Assembly (NCBI GenBank): GCA_036785375.1
Contig: JAWMAR010000563.1
Location: forward strand, 1,116,001-1,180,000
DNA from: Leucoraja ocellata
Lineage: Eukaryota
Direction of reading: 5' to 3'
Length of the DNA stretch: 64,000 nucleotides
Both the position numbers and the translations under genes were made by a program. Within the stretch, counting starts at the first letter, position 1. Every line of letters begins with the position of its first letter. The notes beneath the pieces were generated by a model. That model ran no database searches. It was not told the origin of the DNA and was given only the letters and a program-made list of their open reading frames with translations. Positions 1-62,624 of the stretch are shown here, in pieces.

Positions 1-2300
1 GTCTGTCAGAATGACCCCCATAATTTTTGAGTGCACGCATGTTTGCGCTCAGTAATTTGATAATGTAAAGGTCCGATTTATGTGGCTGGAACACAGCCAC
101 TATAATGCCAATCATTCTACTACCAGTCTGATGGATGGTTTAGTTTACTGCAAGCCTTCATTAAGGCTGTAACCTTTTCTTACGGCAAAGTCACTGACAT
201 GTGAGCTGAGTTAAGAGTGAAACCGCAGATGATCCATTGTGTTAAATACATCTGTGGTCACCTCTAATGGGTACTGTATAGTAAGCATTTTTTAATACGA
301 TGCTTGCCATGTAGTAACCTAGGATCAATACCTTTGCAGTAACAAAGGTTCCCATCTAGTAATGAATATAAAGTACGAAAGTATTCAAATTAGTCAACTC
401 TATGATGATGTGGCAACCACCATCTATTTTATGATAAAGATTTTGGACACAAATCCTGTGATTCGTGTTGGATGTCCTGCATTAGTCCTTTTATTCGAAC
501 AAGTTAGGGCTTTATTCTTTGGAGCGCAGAAGGTTAAGGGGGGACTTGATAGAGGTTTTTAAAATGATGAGAGGGATAGACAGAGTTGACGTGGAAAAGC
601 TTTTCCCACTGAGAGTAGGGAAGATGCAAACAAGGGGACATGACATAAGAATTAAGGGACTGAAGTTTAGGGGTAACATGAGGGGGAACTTCTTTACTCA
701 GAGAGTGGTAGCTGTGTGGAATGAGCTTCCAGTGAAGGTGGTGGAGGCAGGTTCGTTTTTATCATTTAAAAATAAATTGGATAGTTATATGGATGGGAAG
801 GGAATGGAGGGTTATGGTCTGAGCGCAGGTATATGGGACTAGGGGAGATTATGTGTTCGGCACGGACTAGAAGCGTCGAGATGGCCTGTTTCCGTGCTGT
901 AATTGTTATATGGTTATTATATGGTTATATTTGGGCACTGTAGTTCAGTAAACGCTTTTGATTATTTCTTTGCCTGTAAGCATGAACATTCAGTTCGGTA
1001 CATGCTGAACTGGAAGGTTATGTTTTGAATAATTCTATGGTATAACCCTATACTTCTTCCTCCATGGTTACTATAAGTAGGTTTCTGTAGTTGGGTCTGT
1101 GTTGAGGGTTAGCGCATTCCCCAGGAAGTAGTTTTTAGACGTTGCTTTAATGAGCCCCAGGGTTTCCCTCTATGTCAAGTTCTTTACCTGTTTAGATAAG
1201 TTGCCTCCAAATTTTAATATTGGTGGTATGGAGGTTCCAGGTTTGCATAGGCCTGCAAATTAGGGTCTAAAGCCGGTTGGATGGTACTTCTTCCTAATGC
1301 TGTTTACCCGTATTGGTAATTTGCAAAATAAGGCCAGTGCATTCTCGTGATCCAGTGTCATGTCTTTTTTGTTTATTGTGCGGGCGAAACCCGTAATACC
1401 CGCTGTTAGGACTTTTGGAACTTTCTTTCATTTCAAGTACCTGTCCTGCCATGTTTTCAAATACACTGGTTTATACTGGGAACATTCAGTGTTTTGCAGT
1501 TCCCTGATGGTAAGTGTCTTCCAATAGGTTTTCTGCACCCCATGTGCACTAGGGGTATGTTCTGCACCCCTGTTCAGGTTCAGCCCAGAATTCACCCCCT
1601 ATACTCCCCTCTGATGAGGGAGACACTGTGCAGCCCTACAAGAGGTACTGCTGTAGGACTTACTAGCTGCCCCCTGTGACTAGTCTCCATCTCCCGGAGC
1701 CTGCCACTTACCTGCTCCAACAGCTGCTCCAGCTGGCTCCGATGCTCTTGGGCACCCAACCGGCTCCAATGCACATGGTCACTGGCTGTCGCGGCTGCTC
1801 CTGAAGCCGCTACTCCTGAGGCCGCTCCTGCTCCAGTTCCTGCAGCCGCTCCAACTGTTCCAATGCTCACGGGCACTGGCCGCTCGCGGCTATTCAGAGT
1901 CGGACTCCTCGGAGTCAACGACCCTGTTAGTTTTTGCTTCGCTCTCCCGCCCGGCTTGGCCGGTGTGGGAGTGAAGTTGGGAGCAAAGTCGGGCACAGCT
2001 GTTCCCATTACGGGAGATTGGCGTGCCTTTGGCTGCTGCTGCTGCCGGCTGCCCGCAACTCCATGATTCTCCCCCGCCAGCTTTTACGCAGCCGTCGTGG
2101 ATCTGGTCCATGTCTCCACCTGAAAGGTAAGTGGAAGGAACGCAGAGTCTTCTTACCTGCTGTTCCCGGTTTTCAAATTTTGCCGCTAAGGGAACGTCGT
2201 TCCCCCTGCTGTGACTCGTTGCAATACGTGTAGCGATATGACACGCATGCGTCCTGGCGGGGTTCTTCACGTAGTCACTCACGTGACTCCGAAGTAAAAT
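1..2300 (-). mobile_element. Degenerate DIRS-type (tyrosine-recombinase) retrotransposon, 5' part (terminus, gag, RT); interrupted by a CR1 fragment
   Basis: Minus strand 1-490 translates, with stops and frameshifts, to DIRS RT motifs (GFVSKIFI..DGGCHIIIELTNLNTFV; GYYMASIVLKNAYYTVPI; SVTLP*EKV; GPLHY). 1150-1350 gives a gag-like segment (IQPALDP..FAGLCKPG..FGGNLSKQVK). GC-rich leader and a terminal CACGTGA motif near 2290. Confidence 0.75.
497..930 (+). mobile_element. CR1 LINE 3' fragment (family A, ATATGGTT-type tail) inserted in the DIRS element
   Basis: ORF 519-842 is the CR1 ORF2 C-terminus ([12 protein letters not shown]...FFTQRVVAVWNELP); tandem ttatatgg tail. Confidence 0.95.
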
Positions 2301-2864
2301 TTAGTTTAATTCACCTCAACCTCATTGCACATCGAACATTGTCTATGGGACTGATATGTTACAATGTTGAGAACTATATTCTGTACTCTGTATCCTCCTC
2401 TTTGCTCTATCTATTGTTTTTGAGTTTGTATTAATGTATAGTATTATCTAATTAGTTTGGACAGCATTTAAAACAAACCTTTACACTGTATCTTGAAACA
2501 TCTCACATTAATAAAACAAAACCTAAGGAAGTAAGTTCTGTGACGCAAGTTACAGTTTCTGCAACATAAAATATAACTGCCTGACAAACAGCGACTGTAC
2601 TAGTTTGATTCCAGGTATGCTGCACTAACCTACACAAATGCTCACTTTTGAAGATCCCCTCGAACAATGCACAACTAAGGAATCTGATGTTTCACTCTGA
2701 AGACTGTTGACATACTCCAGAACTTAATTTCCAACCTATCTATGTATTATGAGCAATCTAGGCTACAGCGCCATCTGTCCCTTCATCTGCTCTTAATACC
2801 AACAATAAGTGGTTGCATTGATTCCCAACCTGCAGTTACAGTTTCCCAACCTGAACACTCTTTT

Positions 2865-3105
2865 AGAAACATAGAGACATAGAAAATAGGTGCAGGAGGA
2901 GGCCATTCGGCCCTTCGAGCCAGCACCACCATTCATAGATACATAGAAAATAGGTGCAGGAGTAGGCCATTCGGCCCTTTGAGCCTGCACCGCCATTCAA
3001 TATGATCATGGCTGATCAACCAACTCAGTATCCCGTACCTGCCTTCTCCCCATATCCCCTGATCCCTTTAGCCACAAGGGCCACATCTAACTCCCTCTTA
3101 AATAT
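2865..3105 (-). mobile_element. CR1 3' end fragments (family B, TTCTATGT-type tail), partly tandem
   Basis: acatagaaa tail; 3' UTR matches 15850-15976 in reverse. Confidence 0.85.
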
Positions 3106-3176
3106 ATGATTTGTTCATGATTGTTCATGAAGTTTGGATCTCTACAATATATTGTATTTCTTTTGTTTCTCATTCA

Positions 3177-3755
3177 TAGTGATCATGGCTGATCGTCCCC
3201 TATCAATAACCCGTGCCTGCCTTCTCCCCATACCCCTTGACTGCACTAGCCCCTAGAGCTCTATCTAACTCACTCTTAAAACCATCCAGTGACTTGGCCT
3301 CCACTGCCCTCTGTGGCAGGGAATTCCACAAATTCACAACTCTCTGGGTGAAAAAGTTTTTTCTCACCTCAGTCTTAAATGACCTCCCCTTTATTCCAAG
3401 ACTGTGACCCCCTGGTTCTGGATTCGCCCAACATTGGGAACATTTTTCCTGCATCTAGCTTGTCCAGTCCTTTTTATAATTTTAAATGTTTCTATAAGAT
3501 CCCCCTCATCCTTCTAAACTCCAGTGAATACAAGCATAGTCTTTTTAATCTTTCCTCATATGACAGTCCTGCCATTCCAGGGATCAATCTCGTGAACCTA
3601 CGCTGCACTGCTTCAATCGCAAGGATGTCCTTCCTCAAATTAGGAGACCAAAACTGCACACACTACTCCAGATGTGGTCTCACCAGAGCACTATACAACT
3701 GCAGAAGAACCTCTTTACTCCTATACTGAAATACTATTGTTATGAAGGCCAACAT
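3177..3755 (-). mobile_element. CR1 LINE 3' fragment
   Basis: Minus ORF 3203-3454 (GHSLGIKGRSFKTEVRKNFFTQRVVNLWNSLP); LVRPHLE motif upstream. Confidence 0.9.
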
Positions 3756-4270
3756 TAAGACAACTCTCTGCTTGCTCTGAATTGTTTTTTCCTTTCATGC
3801 TAATTATTACCCCAAATGTCAAAAGCCTTTGCATCACTTGATCAGATATCTTATGAAAATCCTGATATTGTGGCGATATCTGGTGGTCAGGTCACTTATT
3901 GGTAGAATCCTCGTCAGGGGAGCTGGGACTATCACATGACAGGGTTTTGGTGGGAGTTGGTGATGAGTCAGTCGTCAGTCAACTGGTGTGCCCGATTACA
4001 ACGGCAGGAACTTTGCTCAAGTCCTTACTAAACACGCGTGTGCCAAAACTATATTTCTTTAAAAAAAATTGATTTGTTCATGACGTTTGGATCTCTACAA
4101 TATATTGTATTTCTGTTGTTTCTCATTCCAATTTTGTTATCTATTCTGCTTTTTCATCATTTTGTTTTTGAATTTTAGGCTGTGCACACCTGCAAACTAC
4201 TGCTGCTTGAATATTTATTGTCTACAGGTTCCTGTTGCATAAAGTTCATAATCAATTTCATAAACAAAGT

Positions 4271-4502
4271 TTGAAGAAGGGCCCCAAAACGAAACGTCAC
4301 CTGTCCATATGTAAAAAGAAACTGCAAATGCTGGTTTACACCGAAGATGGACACAAATTTCTGGAATAACTCAGCTGGTCAGGCAGCATCTCTGGAGAAA
4401 AGGAATACGTGATGTTTCGGGTCACGCTCCTTCTGACTGAGTCCATGTTCGCCAGAGATGCTGCCTGTGCCGCTGAATTACTCCAGCATTTTGTATCTAT
4501 CA
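4271..4502. repeat. Penelope-like terminal-repeat-derived sequence in a foldback arrangement
   Basis: ctggaataactcagc..ggcagcatctctgg followed by its inverted copy ccagagatgctgcc..ttactccag; matches the 3' part of the PLE at 31565-31790. Confidence 0.7.
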
Positions 4503-5076
4503 TGTATTGTCTTTCTACTGACTGGTTGGCACGTAACAAAAGCTTTTCACTGTACCTCAGTACACGTGACAATAAACTAAACTAAACCTTTTGTGTAAAT
4601 CAGTACCTGCATCTTGTTCTACAATTTTCCTGTTAATGCACTTTATTGTTTTGTTATTACTTAAATGTTCTGCCATTATTGAAAGAAATCCAGCATTTCC
4701 CCCAAAACAGATGTTAGATTATATAGGGCTAAAACCAGTATCTATCTGCTTTCAATTTGCCTTCTTTCTTGAATTAAGATGTGGCTGTGATGGTGCCATA
4801 GATCATAGAGTTGTACAGAACATATATTGTCCCTTTGCTATGCTGCAGAACTCTGTCATTCAAAACACCATATCATTTTATATACCTTGAAATGCGCCAA
4901 AGATAGACACAAAATGCTGGAGTAACTCATTGGTCAGGTAGCATCTCTGGAGAAAAGGAATAGGTGGCATTTTGGGTCGAGACCCTTCTTCAGCCTGAAG
5001 TCTTCAGACAGTGCCAATCTATTTAGCTGCACAGCTTAACAATTGATTTGTAAAATTATGCATTCTTATTTTTCAG

Positions 5077-5184
5077 AAGGAAATGGGAAGAAAGACAGGC
5101 ACATTGGCCTTATTGCCGTGTGTGTGCTGATATCGCTGGCTATTGGCTTGGCAGTAATTGTTTGGTGGAGAAAAAACAGGAGAG
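5077..5184 (+). CDS. Transmembrane exon of a type I membrane protein (probably MHC class I-like or CD1-like); upstream exons lie outside the window
   Basis: Acceptor ttcttatttttcag, donor G|gtaaga, 108 nt, phase 1-1. Encodes xGNGKKDRHIGLIAVCVLISLAIGLAVIVWWRKNRR (hydrophobic span plus basic stop-transfer). Confidence 0.85.
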
Positions 5185-5789
5185 GTAAGATGGAAACATT
5201 GTGACAAACTGTTGCTAGTAAAGGTATTGGATTTGAAGAAATGATCAATCTCAAGTAGGATAAGGCAGCAGCTACACATGAAATGCCACAATTGTCACCA
5301 CTGTCAACTAGCCTTTTTGCTGTTGCTAAATGTTTCTGATATTCAGATATTTGAAATTGTGAATTCAGTGTAAAATAAATAGGTAGACATTATGGATTCA
5401 CTGCACCAAATCCTAGAAATATCATTGAAAAGTACAGCATGCAAGCAGTCCATTCGGCCCACCGAGTCCATGCCAACCACCAACCACCTGTTTTCATGAA
5501 TTCTATCTCATTGCACCTTCTCATCCAGTCACACACCCACGAGGGGCAATTTACAGTGGCCAATTAAACTATAAACTGACATGTCTTGGGATGTATGAGG
5601 AAGCCGGAGCCCCTGGAGCGATCCAATGCGGTTACACGGAGGACGTGCAAACTCCACATAGATGGCACTCGAGGTCAAAATTGAAGCCGAGTTGTGACAC
5701 TGTGCTGCTCTGTTGGGGGCTCGCACTGTTCATAATCAAAGTCAGCAACGAGGCAGATTGGTTGCAGTTTTACATTTACTAGTTTTGTT

Positions 5790-6295
5790 TAGTTTAATTT
5801 AGAGATACAGTGACGAAATAGGCCCTTTGGCCCATCGAGTCTGCGCTGACCAGCGATCCCCGCATATTAACACTATCCTACACACACACACACACCATGC
5901 CAATTAACCTACATACCTGTACATCTTTGGAGTGTGGGAGGAAACCTTAGATCTTTGAGAAAACACACGCGGTCACGGGGAGAACGTACAAACTCTGTAC
6001 AGACAGCATCAGTAGTCGGGATCGAACCTAGGTCTCCGGTGCTGCAAGCACTGTAATGCCCCTGTCCGACTTAGGAAACCTGAACGGAAACCTCTGGAGA
6101 CTTTGCGCCCCACCCAAGGTTTCCGAGCTGTTCCTGGAGGTTGCAGGTGGTTGCCGGAGGTTGCAGGTAGTGGAAGCAGGAAGGGAGACTGACAAAAACC
6201 TCCGGGAACTGCACGGAAACATTGGGTGGGGCGCAAAGTCTCCAGAGGTTTCCGTTCAGGTTTGCTAAGTGGGACAGGGGCATAAGGCGCCTCTG
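5790..6295 (-). mobile_element. tRNA-derived V-SINE (HE1-like), interrupted by a MITE
   Basis: Reverse complement of the V-domain (gagtttgtacgttctccccgtgacc...ttcctcccacactccaaaga) and an AAACT-type tail. Confidence 0.85.
6057..6282. mobile_element. PIF/Harbinger-type MITE
   Basis: Long terminal inverted repeats (TIRs), TGCCCCTGTCC...GGGACAGGGGCA, making almost the whole element palindromic; flanked by TAA at 6054-6056 and 6283-6285. Confidence 0.85.
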
Positions 6296-7189
6296 TGGCT
6301 CCTGTTGCTGGAAGACTCAAAATGACGTGGGAATGTGAGTAGTGGGAGTAATAGTTCAAGGTGGAAAGCCGAATGAATGAGCAACAACGTGACAGGTGGA
6401 CAACAATGTGAAACAGGGCAGCACCGAGACAGAGACCAGAATTAAATACCAACATCGGCTGTTGTATCTGTAGAGTATGCATGTTGTTCCTGTGACCAAG
6501 TGGGTTTCCCCAGGTGCTCTGGTTTCCTCCCACATCCCCAAAACATGGTTTGGTAGGTTAGTTGTCCCCTAGATTGTGCATGATACAATGTGGGGATAGC
6601 TGATGAGAATGTGGGACAAATGTAGGATTAGTGTACATGAATGGTTGGTGCAAAGTCAGTGGGACAAAGGCCATGTTTGTATATTTCCATGACTCTTTAT
6701 GATGTAGAAAGATGCTGACTATTTTTGAATTATAAGATTGGAAAAGACTGTGAGGAACGGTGCTTGAGTAGCTCAGCAGGTCAGGCAACATCCCTGGAGA
6801 CCATGGATAGGTGACAATCTGGTTCGAGACTCTCCAGGCAAATTACAATGGGTAATCTCCGCTTAAGCCTGAGAGTAGTGTACAGATGCACCTCAACCAC
6901 TGACTTGCTCTACAAGTGCCCCAATGAGTTGAATTAAAGTATGTTTGGAGTAACATGTAGCAGTCCTTAAAATATACCATTTCCCAAATCCCAAGAGCTG
7001 GATGATCAGGGATTTAGTGTAAATTCAGTCATCTATGTCACTGGTTTCTTGCCTGTGATCACACTGTTGTAAGAATTATGCTGGAGATGAATTGCAGTTC
7101 ACTTTCCCCTTGTGTAAAGAAGTTATTGTGTTGAATATAACAAGTGGAAGGGAAAGTCAGTGTAGGATTTAGAGTTTGTACGTAATGCA

Positions 7190-7640
7190 GCATGGTAGTG
7201 CAGCTGGTAGAACTGCTGCCTCACAACGCCAGAGACGCAGGTTCAATCTGGACCTCGGGTACTGTCTACGTAGAGTTTGCACGTTCTCCTTGTGACTATG
7301 TTGGCTTCCTCAGGGAGCTCCGGTTTCCTCCCACATCCCAAAGATGAGCAGGTGTGTAGGTAATCAGCCAGGCAGTGTATGGAGTGGGTGGGAATCTATT
7401 ATGAATAGGCAATCGCTGGTTAGTATGGATTTGGTGGCACAAATGGCCTGTTTACACACTGTATCACTGTTTTCAAGAGAGAGTTAGAATTAGCTCTTAG
7501 GGCTAAGGGAATCAAGGGATATGGGGAAAAAGCCGGAATGGAGTACTGATTTTGGATGATCAGCCATGATTGTGTTGAATGGCGGTGCTGGCTCGAAGGG
7601 CCGAATAGCCTATTCCTGCACCTATTTTTTATGTTTCTAT
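7190..7640 (+). mobile_element. V-SINE followed by a CR1 family B 3' end
   Basis: tRNA-like head (ggtagtgcagctggtaga...ggttcaatc), V-domain, then CR1 3' UTR. Confidence 0.75.
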
Positions 7641-9239
7641 CTTTCTATTAAATAAACTAAATTGGAAGTCAGAAGGTATTGCCTGATGCATCTTCAAGCC
7701 AGCTGTAAATGTCATAAATTGTGAGAATTGATTGCGAATGTGATACAATATTATAAACAAAACTGGGTGATCAAAATGACAAGATGGCTGAAGAGCAGAG
7801 TTTTCATTGAAATAACAGACGTGCAGCTTTCTCGAGCACTTGGCCTTGGTTGTGTAATATTTCCTCTTCAAAATACAATGTTCCCAGGCACTGCTGGTCT
7901 GAGACACCACTCAGCAAGTATATTTCCTGAAACTGAGGTGCTGCTTTCATGGTATCAAGATGTCTAGCAGCTCCAGCACGCTGATCAGAACCAAGCCATT
8001 TCTCACTTTGCCAAAACTAAGAATGCAGCACCAATTTAGTCATTGAACACCAACAACATGCACATTTGAAGTGAGGCAAAGGTTTGACCTTATTATCACT
8101 GTAAACCAGCCATGGTTATAGAGGTCTGCCATTGTGGTCACTATTTGCGAGGGTGATTAACTAACATTTAGCAGTGAAACGGAAAATAATTGGCTTTACA
8201 AGCCCACGGAGCCAGAGTCATACGGCGTGGAAACAGGTCCTTTGCCTCAACTTGGCCATGCCAACCAAGATGCCAAGTTTAAACTAGACCCCTTTACCTG
8301 CAATTGACCCATATCTCCCTGAACCTTTTCTATCTACCGTATGTACCTGGCCAAGTGTGTTCTAAATATTTTTAAGTCCCTGCCTCAACTACTTCCCCTG
8401 AAATGTTGTTCCATATTTCCACTTCCTCTGGTTTTGAGTAACTCATTTCCCTTCACCTTAAACCTAAGTCCTCTGGATATTGATTACACGGCTGGTGAAA
8501 AGATTCTGTGCATTCAATCTATCTATGCTCCTTGATTTTATAAATCTCTATAAGATCACCCCTCAGCCTCTTGGATGCCAAGGAATAAAGTCCAGGCATT
8601 CTCATCCTCTCCCTGAATCGCAGGCCCTGTTAATGACATCCTTCCCATAGTGGAGTGACAAAACTTAACACAATACTCCAAATGTGGCCTCACCAACATC
8701 TTGTACAACTGTAGCAGAACATCACAACCTTTGTATCCAGTACCTTGACAGCCAGAGAAGGTTGTGCTGTGAGGAGGACATTTCATGTTATTGATGTTCC
8801 TGATTATTCCGTTCTTTGTGCCTGGCCATTTTGACTTTGCCCCATTTTACTTTGTGTATGATATTGTACAAGATTTGTAATCACACCTCCCAATTGACTA
8901 AATTATCCTAATTAATTAAATGCCTATATGTTAAATGCCACATTAGGCATTTAGTTAAGTAGGATAATTTTTTGTGCAGGGTAGAAGCTGCAGTTTTTAT
9001 TACACACTGTGTGGTGTGTGCCTGGAATGGACTGCCAGGGATGGTGGCGTTTGGGGTACAGCTTTGTGGATGCAGGGGCTGGAGGGACATGAATCATTTG
9101 CAGGCAGATGCTGCCTAACTGGTGTCTGTCCGACTGATTGGGAGGAATTCGAATGGGATCTGATGGTGAGGCATGGAGTACTTCCAGTGACAATATTATG
9201 CTGAGCCACCAATGTTTGTGCTGAACATGATGCATATTA

Positions 9240-9755
9240 AGGCAGAGTGGTGCAGCAGAGAGAGCTGCTGCCTCAGACCGTCAGAGACATGAGTTCAATC
9301 TTAATCTCGGTTTTTGGCTGTGTAAAGTTTGCATATTTTCCCTGTGACCGCATGTGTTTCCACTGTGCTCCAGTTTCCACACACATGCCAAAGATGCCAC
9401 GGTTTATGAGTTAATTGGTCTCTGTAATTTAACCCTAGTGTGGATGCGAAATTTGGATAACACAGAACTTGTATGAACTAAACTAATTGGAAGAATATTA
9501 TGTTTTTTGCTTAGTTTAGTTCAGAGACATAGCATTGAAACAGACACTTCAACCCATTGAGTGCGCACCAACCACCGATCACTCACACATGCTAGGGACA
9601 CAAGACAATTCACCTACAAACCTGCATGTCTCTTTTTGGAATGTGGGAGGAAACTGGAGTACCTGGAGAAAACCTGTGCAGTCACAGGGAGAAGGTACAA
9701 ACTCCGCAGAGACAGCACCCGTAGACAGGATCAACCCAGATGTCTGGTGCTGTAC
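9240..9755. mobile_element. Two V-SINE copies in opposite orientation
   Basis: V-domain on + (9240-9480) and on - (9505-9755). Confidence 0.7.
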
Positions 9756-9907
9756 CATTATATCTGGAAGGGAAGATGTTATGTGGGATGAATCAACAGT
9801 GGAAGCATCATTTTAAGCTCTGTCCTCGGCTCTGCGAATGGCCTATTCCTGCATCTTTTGTCCATTGTCTATTTCACGGTTGTCTAATATTTAATTTCCC
9901 TCCTCAG

Positions 9908-9948
9908 ATTATCAAAATATTCAACCAAACCAGAACGTTCCCTGCTAA
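9908..9948 (+). CDS. Putative terminal cytoplasmic exon of the left gene: (D)YQNIQPNQNVPC*
   Basis: Branch-point-like ctaat at 9884, polypyrimidine acceptor tttccctcctcag, phase-1 compatible with the donor at 5184, TAA at 9946-9948, AATAAA about 100 nt downstream; unique non-repeat sequence. Confidence 0.65.
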
Positions 9949-10049
9949 CCTATCGCTGAATAGAAGATTTCATTGATGTGATTGAAATGCAGGATCAGAA
10001 CTATATGGAAAGAGTTAAATTAAATTTACTAAACATGACAGTATTTCTT

Positions 10050-10055
10050 AATAAA
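10050..10055 (+). terminator. Candidate polyadenylation signal of the left gene
   Basis: AATAAA about 100 nt after the predicted stop. Confidence 0.5.
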
Positions 10056-58344: not shown

Positions 58345-58550
58345 TCACAAAGGAAGCTGATTGTGCTTCATGGTCACTGCAGTCATCTCCTGGTCTCTGC
58401 TGTTGTCAGCTGGTCCCTGTTCATTGTGATTTTTTTTCCTTTTCCTCTTCTTCCAGCAACCTATTCCAAGGATGATCCCCAGGAGAATGAGAGGAACGAT
58501 TGCAGCTCCAGTCACGATCCTAATTTTTATATCATCTTTCGCTGCCCTCT
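58345..58550 (-). CDS. MHC class I-like gene, terminal exon: connecting peptide, transmembrane and cytoplasmic tail
   Basis: Acceptor tttgcctacag, phase 1, in frame with the alpha3 donor. Encodes ERAAKDDIKIRIVTGAAIVPLILLGIILGIGCWKKRKRKKNHNEQGPADNSRDQEMTAVTMKHNQLPL*. Confidence 0.88.
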
Positions 58551-62351: not shown

Positions 62352-62624
62352 CCTGTGGAACATTGACTCCCCGCAGCAGAGTTGTATGTTCGATGTAACA
62401 GGAGAATTTTGCCACATCTTCTTTAATCAGTTCAATTGTATTCTTCAGCTGGTAAGTCCCATCCCAATTCGGTAACAGATCACTGGATTCAAACCCGGTG
62501 ACCCCCTCACCATCTCTCAGCCACGTTACATCGATGGCCTGTGGGTAGAAGCCTGTGACAAGGCAGGAGAGGCTCAGTGATTGCGACCCATCACGTTTAA
62601 TCCCAATAAACACCTCGGGGGTTT
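62352..62624 (-). CDS. MHC class I-like heavy chain alpha3 exon (Ig C1-set)
   Basis: Acceptor ttcttctacttgcag, donor G|gtaagt, 273 nt, phase 1-1. TPEVFIG...LSCLVTGFYPQAIDVTWLRDG...LLPNWDGTYQL...FSCYIEHTTL has both Ig cysteines, the core Trp and the class I PNxDGTYQ motif. Confidence 0.93.

Follow-up and report, generated by a model that had tools for sequence, protein, structure and literature searches.

Two plus-strand exons in the stretch of Leucoraja ocellata DNA analysed here (64,000 nucleotides, referred to as the window) encode, with a probability that we put at roughly three in four for the reading as a whole, the membrane anchor and cytoplasmic tail of skate UGA, a likely lipid-presenting molecule with a YxxPhi motif, which is predicted to let it recycle via endosomes. 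Our analyses established the two exons and their spliced product, the match of this product to an annotated class I protein, the place of that protein in the UGA clade, the loss of several peptide anchors from the groove of the clade's members, and the conservation of the motif in their tails. The lineage has already been named and crystallised, and a gene model and the likeness to CD1 are likewise on record; the conserved sorting motif and, less expected, a motif-less sister lineage adjoining UGA are useful and testable additions. Behind them stands a live question, whether adaptive immunity has from its beginnings included lipid presentation with sampling of endosomes.

We propose that the UGA heavy chain would pair with beta2-microglobulin, that its hydrophobic groove would take up cellular lipid, and that the complex would then arrive at the cell surface. 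Binding of the tail tyrosine to the mu2 subunit of AP-2 would lead to clathrin uptake, so that lipid exchange could take place in endosomes ahead of display to T cells. The features of the window are as follows.

5077..5184, plus strand: skate UGA exon for the transmembrane part (108 nt, in phase 1 on either side; it encodes the connecting peptide, the membrane helix and basic stop-transfer residues)
5185..9907, plus strand: intron between the transmembrane and tail exons (4,723 nt, GT-AG; junction present in P0016 and P0020-P0022)
9908..9948, plus strand: coding part of the cytoplasmic-tail exon (YxxPhi motif YQNI, terminal Cys, stop)
9949..10055, plus strand: 3' UTR to the polyadenylation signals (ATTAAA at 10019, AATAAA at 10050; signals predicted from sequence)
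58345..58550, minus strand: single transmembrane-plus-tail exon of the neighbouring class I gene, lacking YxxPhi
62352..62624, minus strand: alpha3 (Ig C1-set) exon of the neighbour (273 nt), which belongs to a second nonclassical class I lineage

The 3' end of a class I gene

The exon at 5077-5184, bordered by a pyrimidine-rich acceptor ending in TTTCAG and a GTAAGA donor, was the best of the four transmembrane candidates listed by a window scan of both strands (hydropathy 2.98). The exon at 9908-9948 follows an acceptor ending in CCTCAG and keeps the phase 1 frame, so that the joined product ends in RRDYQNIQPNQNVPC and a stop. The motif by itself could be due to chance, as 7 of the 188 possible acceptors in 5185-58000 would yield a YxxPhi at codons 2-4. 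Support for the splice is independent of the motif and comes from the identity of the joined product to independent proteins. Its 48 residues are the C-terminus of RefSeq XP_055521885.1 from Leucoraja erinacea (P0016; 48/48 identical), and they recur in three unnamed Logan proteins (48/48 in P0020 and P0022, 47/48 in P0021) and, with 44/48 residues identical over membrane segment and tail, in XP_032898133.1 of Amblyraja radiata. The longest contigs of the three Logan proteins measure 3455, 1435 and 1992 bases; as none exceeds 3,455 bases and the intron alone takes up 4,723, we infer that they represent spliced RNA. A search of sequencing runs listed no RNA data set with the sequence. A search with the transmembrane exon returned three protein matches among 18 candidates, all of them skate class I, and the clusters of these matches contain XP_055521885.1 and the three Logan proteins.

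The in-frame splice described in the original prediction is thus borne out by the exon borders and the 48/48 identity, and the AATAAA is present at 10050, but to call the gene hidden was an overstatement. A RefSeq model exists under a generic class I name, both XP_055521885.1 and XP_032898133.1 being entered merely as 'class I histocompatibility antigen, F10 alpha chain-like'.

No plus-strand alpha3 exon was found in positions 1-5076 of the window, and the ectodomain analysed below is that of the full-length proteins sharing the 48-residue end, the Leucoraja versions compared being about 98% alike. P0016 carries PF00129 and PF07654, the class I platform and the C1-set domain. With the ectodomain taken from these proteins, the chain possesses every part of an MHC class I heavy chain, from the alpha1-alpha2 platform and C1-set alpha3 to the transmembrane segment and tail; a non-MHC ectodomain, named beforehand as an outcome that would speak against class I identity, is not what they contain.

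Skates have several UGA copies, among them ten near-identical models in Rhinoraja and Leucoraja models on two contigs, and one protein from these contigs (P0017) has neither transmembrane segment nor tail. Given these copies, and an ectodomain that lies beyond the window, the locus could be a partial copy. That it is an orphan or non-functional 3' fragment of a skate expansion we regard as very improbable: the splice sites and reading frame are intact, as is the poly(A) signal, and the joined product is identical at 48/48 residues to full-length proteins whose contigs are short and probably spliced. The accessible text of a 2025 review describes UFA and UGA, from personal communication, as CD1-like genes that sharks and rays carry in single or low copy number and in linkage to the MHC (PMC12562908), to which the ten Rhinoraja models stand in contrast. 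As far as the window itself reaches, UGA lies beside a second class I gene. At the Leucoraja RefSeq locus some models are fused to a GPR139-like gene, which is absent from this window.

Placement in the UGA lineage and character of the groove

The best PDB match of P0016 is 9CH4, 'Crystal structure of shark nonclassical MHC CLASS I, UGA', released 2026-03-18 (phmmer E 1.3e-114; runner-up 3.5e-48), and P0041, a zebra-shark member of the same clade, matches this entry with an E of 6.7e-170. The predicted structure of the skate chain resembles class I folds and superimposes on 9CH4 with a Z of 31.7 and an rmsd of 1.4 A over 268 residues at 58% identity. Against shark UFA (8GM8), the other reported CD1-like class Ib lineage of elasmobranchs, the Z is 22.9 and the identity 28%, short of ortholog-level similarity. 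The model was built on a 114-sequence alignment (pLDDT 93.4) and supersedes one from 19 sequences (pLDDT 56.6); because the larger alignment consists mostly of class I chains other than UGA, the modelled groove width is not trustworthy.

In trees of the whole ectodomain, of alpha1-2 and of alpha3, 17 UGA-like rows form one clade with SH-aLRT values of 97-100, which divides into sharks and batoids. The trees were computed by a quick method from 42 rows that we picked from the stored proteins; P0041 stands in for 9CH4 itself, and all rows are class I chains other than CD1. The phylogeny proposed in the original prediction was accordingly completed for elasmobranch lineages, and the suspicion that the gene is a nonclassical class I of a CD1-like lineage has found its answer in UGA, on the combined evidence of PDB match, structure and trees. 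Of the solved structures, UGA is the one closest to this chain, which groups inside the UGA clade.

For the groove we used what we take to be the HLA-style numbering and list of groove positions, anchored on Triakis classical class I. All 22 UGA sequences carry leucine in place of tyrosine at position 159 and A, I or V at position 123 (A in this protein), and in 20 of the 22 T143 is replaced by F, L or M, the other two having S. Y7, Y59, K146, W147 and Y171 are mostly kept, and R84 is retained within UGA in skates only. Classical elasmobranch UAA (Triakis; PDB 6LUP) shares with UGA the domain layout and a membrane-near tail tyrosine, but the two are 30% identical in alpha1-2, and UAA keeps T143 and Y159 and has a longer tail with YxxA; the full set of peptide-terminus anchors of classical class I is broken in skate UGA by the changes T143 to F, Y159 to L and 123 to A.

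Averaged over 41 groove positions, hydropathy comes to +0.23 in skate UGA, +0.53 in shark UGA and +0.63 in that of other rays, as compared with -0.04 in Triakis classical class I, -0.17 in sturgeon and +0.10 in a Mustelus multicopy family. Against the shark and sturgeon classical controls, in a comparison made with class I controls other than CD1, the UGA groove is thus predominantly hydrophobic, modestly so in skates. Of the UGA grooves, that of skates is the least hydrophobic, and it retains Y7, Y59, K146, W147 and Y171. The proposed check of groove hydrophobicity gave hydropathy above both classical controls and showed several peptide anchors to be lost, and the residues are consistent with a groove that would suit lipid, to a modest degree in skates. 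Lipid binding by skate UGA is likely by analogy with a second-hand report on shark proteins: in the accessible text of PMC12562908, again from personal communication, UFA and UGA lipids are said to have been seen by crystal structure and mass spectrometry and to be comparable to CD1d lipids.

The tail motif and the likeness to CD1

A YxxPhi motif is present in UGA tails of 16 of the 18 elasmobranch species and in 34 of 47 models, and every one of the 34 models with the motif has I or V at +3; the tyrosine motif, whose absence from orthologs was to count against the original prediction, is therefore retained. Whale shark (0/3 models), Pristiophorus (0/3) and two of three sawfish models are without it. 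Back-translation leaves room for a frame-shifted motif in the odd Pristiophorus tail, a weak indication that was left out of the count.

Exact YQNI is confined to Leucoraja and Amblyraja, other rays having YQTI, YENI or YESI and sharks YNxV/I. In the skate tail the tyrosine lies six residues past the membrane and eight residues follow the motif to a terminal Cys, which is kept in motif-bearing ray models. Shark UGA, the protein of 9CH4, resembles skate UGA in clade, groove substitutions and possession of a YxxPhi, but its tail, unlike that of the skate, stops at the motif with little else left. In two shark models, P0238 and P0241, the transmembrane exon is skipped and alpha3 runs straight into the same tail exon, which indicates that the tail exon is conserved.

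Is this tyrosine more than the ordinary residue of class I exon 6? The accessible text of PMC12518231 describes a conserved tyrosine in a YXXA context in exon 6 of classical class I, and the UGA tyrosine, too, opens a separate tail exon. As background we took 146 library representatives, of which 90 have a detectable transmembrane segment and 78 of these a tail of at least 9 residues; they are cluster representatives, many of them roughly modelled, and species that are related do not count as independent samples. A membrane-near tyrosine occurs in 41 of the 78, with A or T at +3 in 31 of the 41. A YxxPhi at similar distance occurs in 4 of the 78, and the first membrane-near tyrosine has a bulky +3 residue in just 2 of the 41, as against I or V in 34/34 motif-bearing UGA models. 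Together with the trimming of shark tails to little beyond the motif, this contrast makes it unlikely that the residue serves modest internalisation or phosphorylation alone, with UGA loading its ligand in the ER and having no need of endosomes. Most likely, judging from these tails, the UGA motif arose from the common class I tail tyrosine when the residue at +3 became a bulky one, a change that ran parallel to CD1.

How far does the likeness to CD1 extend? Mammalian CD1b, CD1c and CD1d and the CD1 of reptiles and birds have in common with UGA the class I fold, a hydrophobic groove and a short basic tail with a YxxPhi; the recycling motif of CD1 is thus present in UGA as sequence. According to the accessible text of PMC5002277, CD1 recycling is driven by YXXZ motifs, and by analogy with mammalian CD1 the tail motif is likely to route UGA through endosomes. 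The UGA crystal chain, at 268 residues, is ectodomain only, and a conserved sorting motif would add the trafficking half of the CD1 design. The gene is the skate member of a known CD1-like lineage, likely with endosomal sorting, and its tail motif is directly testable by a tail reporter. A literature search, thin on subscription journals, found neither the primary UFA/UGA paper nor a mention of the UGA tail; the motif may already be described in that paper. Among the rows listed from the supplement of PMC10751288 (30 of 45), loci are labelled MHC-Ib alone.

The special tie to CD1b that the original prediction drew from the shared letters found no support. Human CD1b ends in RRRSYQNIP (PMC5002277, PMC2715062, both as accessible in part), YQNI is found in two skates only and is not lineage-wide in UGA, and the skate tail runs eight residues past the motif. 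AP-3 binding is moreover context-dependent: as given in the accessible part of PMC2715062, YQNIP of CD1b binds AP-2 and AP-3, and YQDIL of CD1c binds AP-2 only. Since a near-identical motif can thus bind AP-2 and not AP-3, lysosomal depth is unreadable from four letters.

True orthology of UGA and amniote CD1, with a tail motif inherited from an ancestor some 450 million years old, would account for the hydrophobic groove and for a tail that is short and basic and has its YxxPhi spaced as in CD1, and batoid motifs resemble CD1 variants in the accessible part of PMC5002277. The review text of PMC12562908 likewise takes UFA and UGA to imply an early CD1 origin, but PMC10751288, as far as its text is accessible, refers to UFA as CD1-like (unpublished) and calls CD1-UFA orthology hard to assess. 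In a wide structural search chicken CD1-1 ranked second (Z 26.3), but within 1 Z of HFE (25.9) and ZAG (25.8), and no CD1 was among the Foldseek matches listed. Nor is a CD1 chain among the best 60 PDB sequence matches of P0016 or P0041; the CD1 chains listed are 20-24% identical to skate UGA and not its nearest relatives by sequence, and UGA, as distinct from CD1, keeps Y7, Y59, K146, W147 and Y171. PF16497, presumably the CD1-type model, scored 18-30 bits, below cutoff, in 10 of 13 UGA proteins and not at all in three. Other class I chains scored 17-39 bits, a range that encloses the UGA scores, and the model was dropped as a discriminator. Orthology is thus without support in Pfam and sequence ranks and not favoured by structure ranks, and we consider it improbable. 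Both this possibility and that of an ordinary tyrosine partly overlap with the reading of UGA as a recycling lipid presenter that we prefer.

The convergent neighbour

The minus-strand neighbour and UGA are convergent, tail to tail, about 48 kb apart. The neighbour represents a distinct lineage, found in seven shark and ray species, with about 39% identity to UGA. No groove that we measured is more hydrophobic than its own (+1.14, five sequences), and none of its seven tails contains a YxxPhi; CD1a tails lack the motif as well, according to the accessible text of PMC5002277. UGA and the neighbour form one clade (SH-aLRT 99) when the tree is built from alpha1-2 or from the whole ectodomain, but not when it is built from alpha3 only, so that convergence of the grooves or an exchange of exons may explain part of their sisterhood.

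We speculate, tentatively, that sharks and rays own a lipid-surveillance system of two isoforms that predates the shark-ray split, in which UGA, with its YxxPhi tail, would sample late endosomes like CD1b and CD1d, and the motif-less neighbour would sample the surface or early endosomes like CD1a. If so, the compartment division of CD1 either evolved twice or dates from the first jawed vertebrates.

No name for the neighbour lineage was found in a comparison with UGA, UFA and UDA, and the primary UFA/UGA paper may cover it. It is not UFA, scoring 115 bits as against 207 for UGA, with 8GM8 outside the best 60 matches of P0008. Nor is it UDA, which we take to retain most anchors, since the neighbour retains just W147 and Y171.

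Cysteines of UGA

Among UGA proteins (a named nonclassical class I lineage of sharks and rays), shark tails end with the YxxPhi tyrosine motif itself, whereas ray tails that bear the motif are extended to a conserved closing cysteine, 8 residues beyond it (7 in stingrays and mantas).

9943-9945: terminal Cys of the UGA tail, conserved in motif-bearing ray orthologs

This residue is a possible lipidation site. An additional cysteine, at residue 54 of the Leucoraja erinacea protein P0016 (XP_055521885.1), lies in the alpha1 floor and is nearly invariant across UGA orthologs; an obvious partner for it is not apparent in skates.

The neighbouring class I gene and the intervening DNA

62624-58345: the window's second class I gene, nonclassical, on the minus strand
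10100-58000: intergenic stretch packed with short repeats and pieces of reverse-transcriptase-like ORFs

The second gene belongs to a lineage of sharks and rays that is closely related to UGA; its groove is very hydrophobic, and it lacks the tyrosine motif. UFA, another elasmobranch class Ib lineage, was rejected as its identity, and our search for a name for the lineage found none. The tail ends earlier than that of the RefSeq Leucoraja model P0004, which continues 8 residues beyond this stop. The intergenic fragments and repeats are presumably CR1-type LINEs, and tblastn found no further class I exons between 10100 and 58000.

Gene models and copy number

In five RefSeq models (P0001, P0002, P0012, P0013 and P0015), the TM exon of Leucoraja UGA is fused with a GPR139-like gene. 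Because the GPR139-like gene is absent from the window, this fusion probably arose at another copy, through either read-through or faulty annotation. In P0238 and P0241, the UGA models from catshark and basking shark, alpha3 is not followed by the TM exon, so a soluble form is predicted. PMC12562908 describes the UGA lineage as single or low copy; the ten near-identical models of Rhinoraja longicauda (P0003 and P0024-P0032) represent a skate expansion of it.
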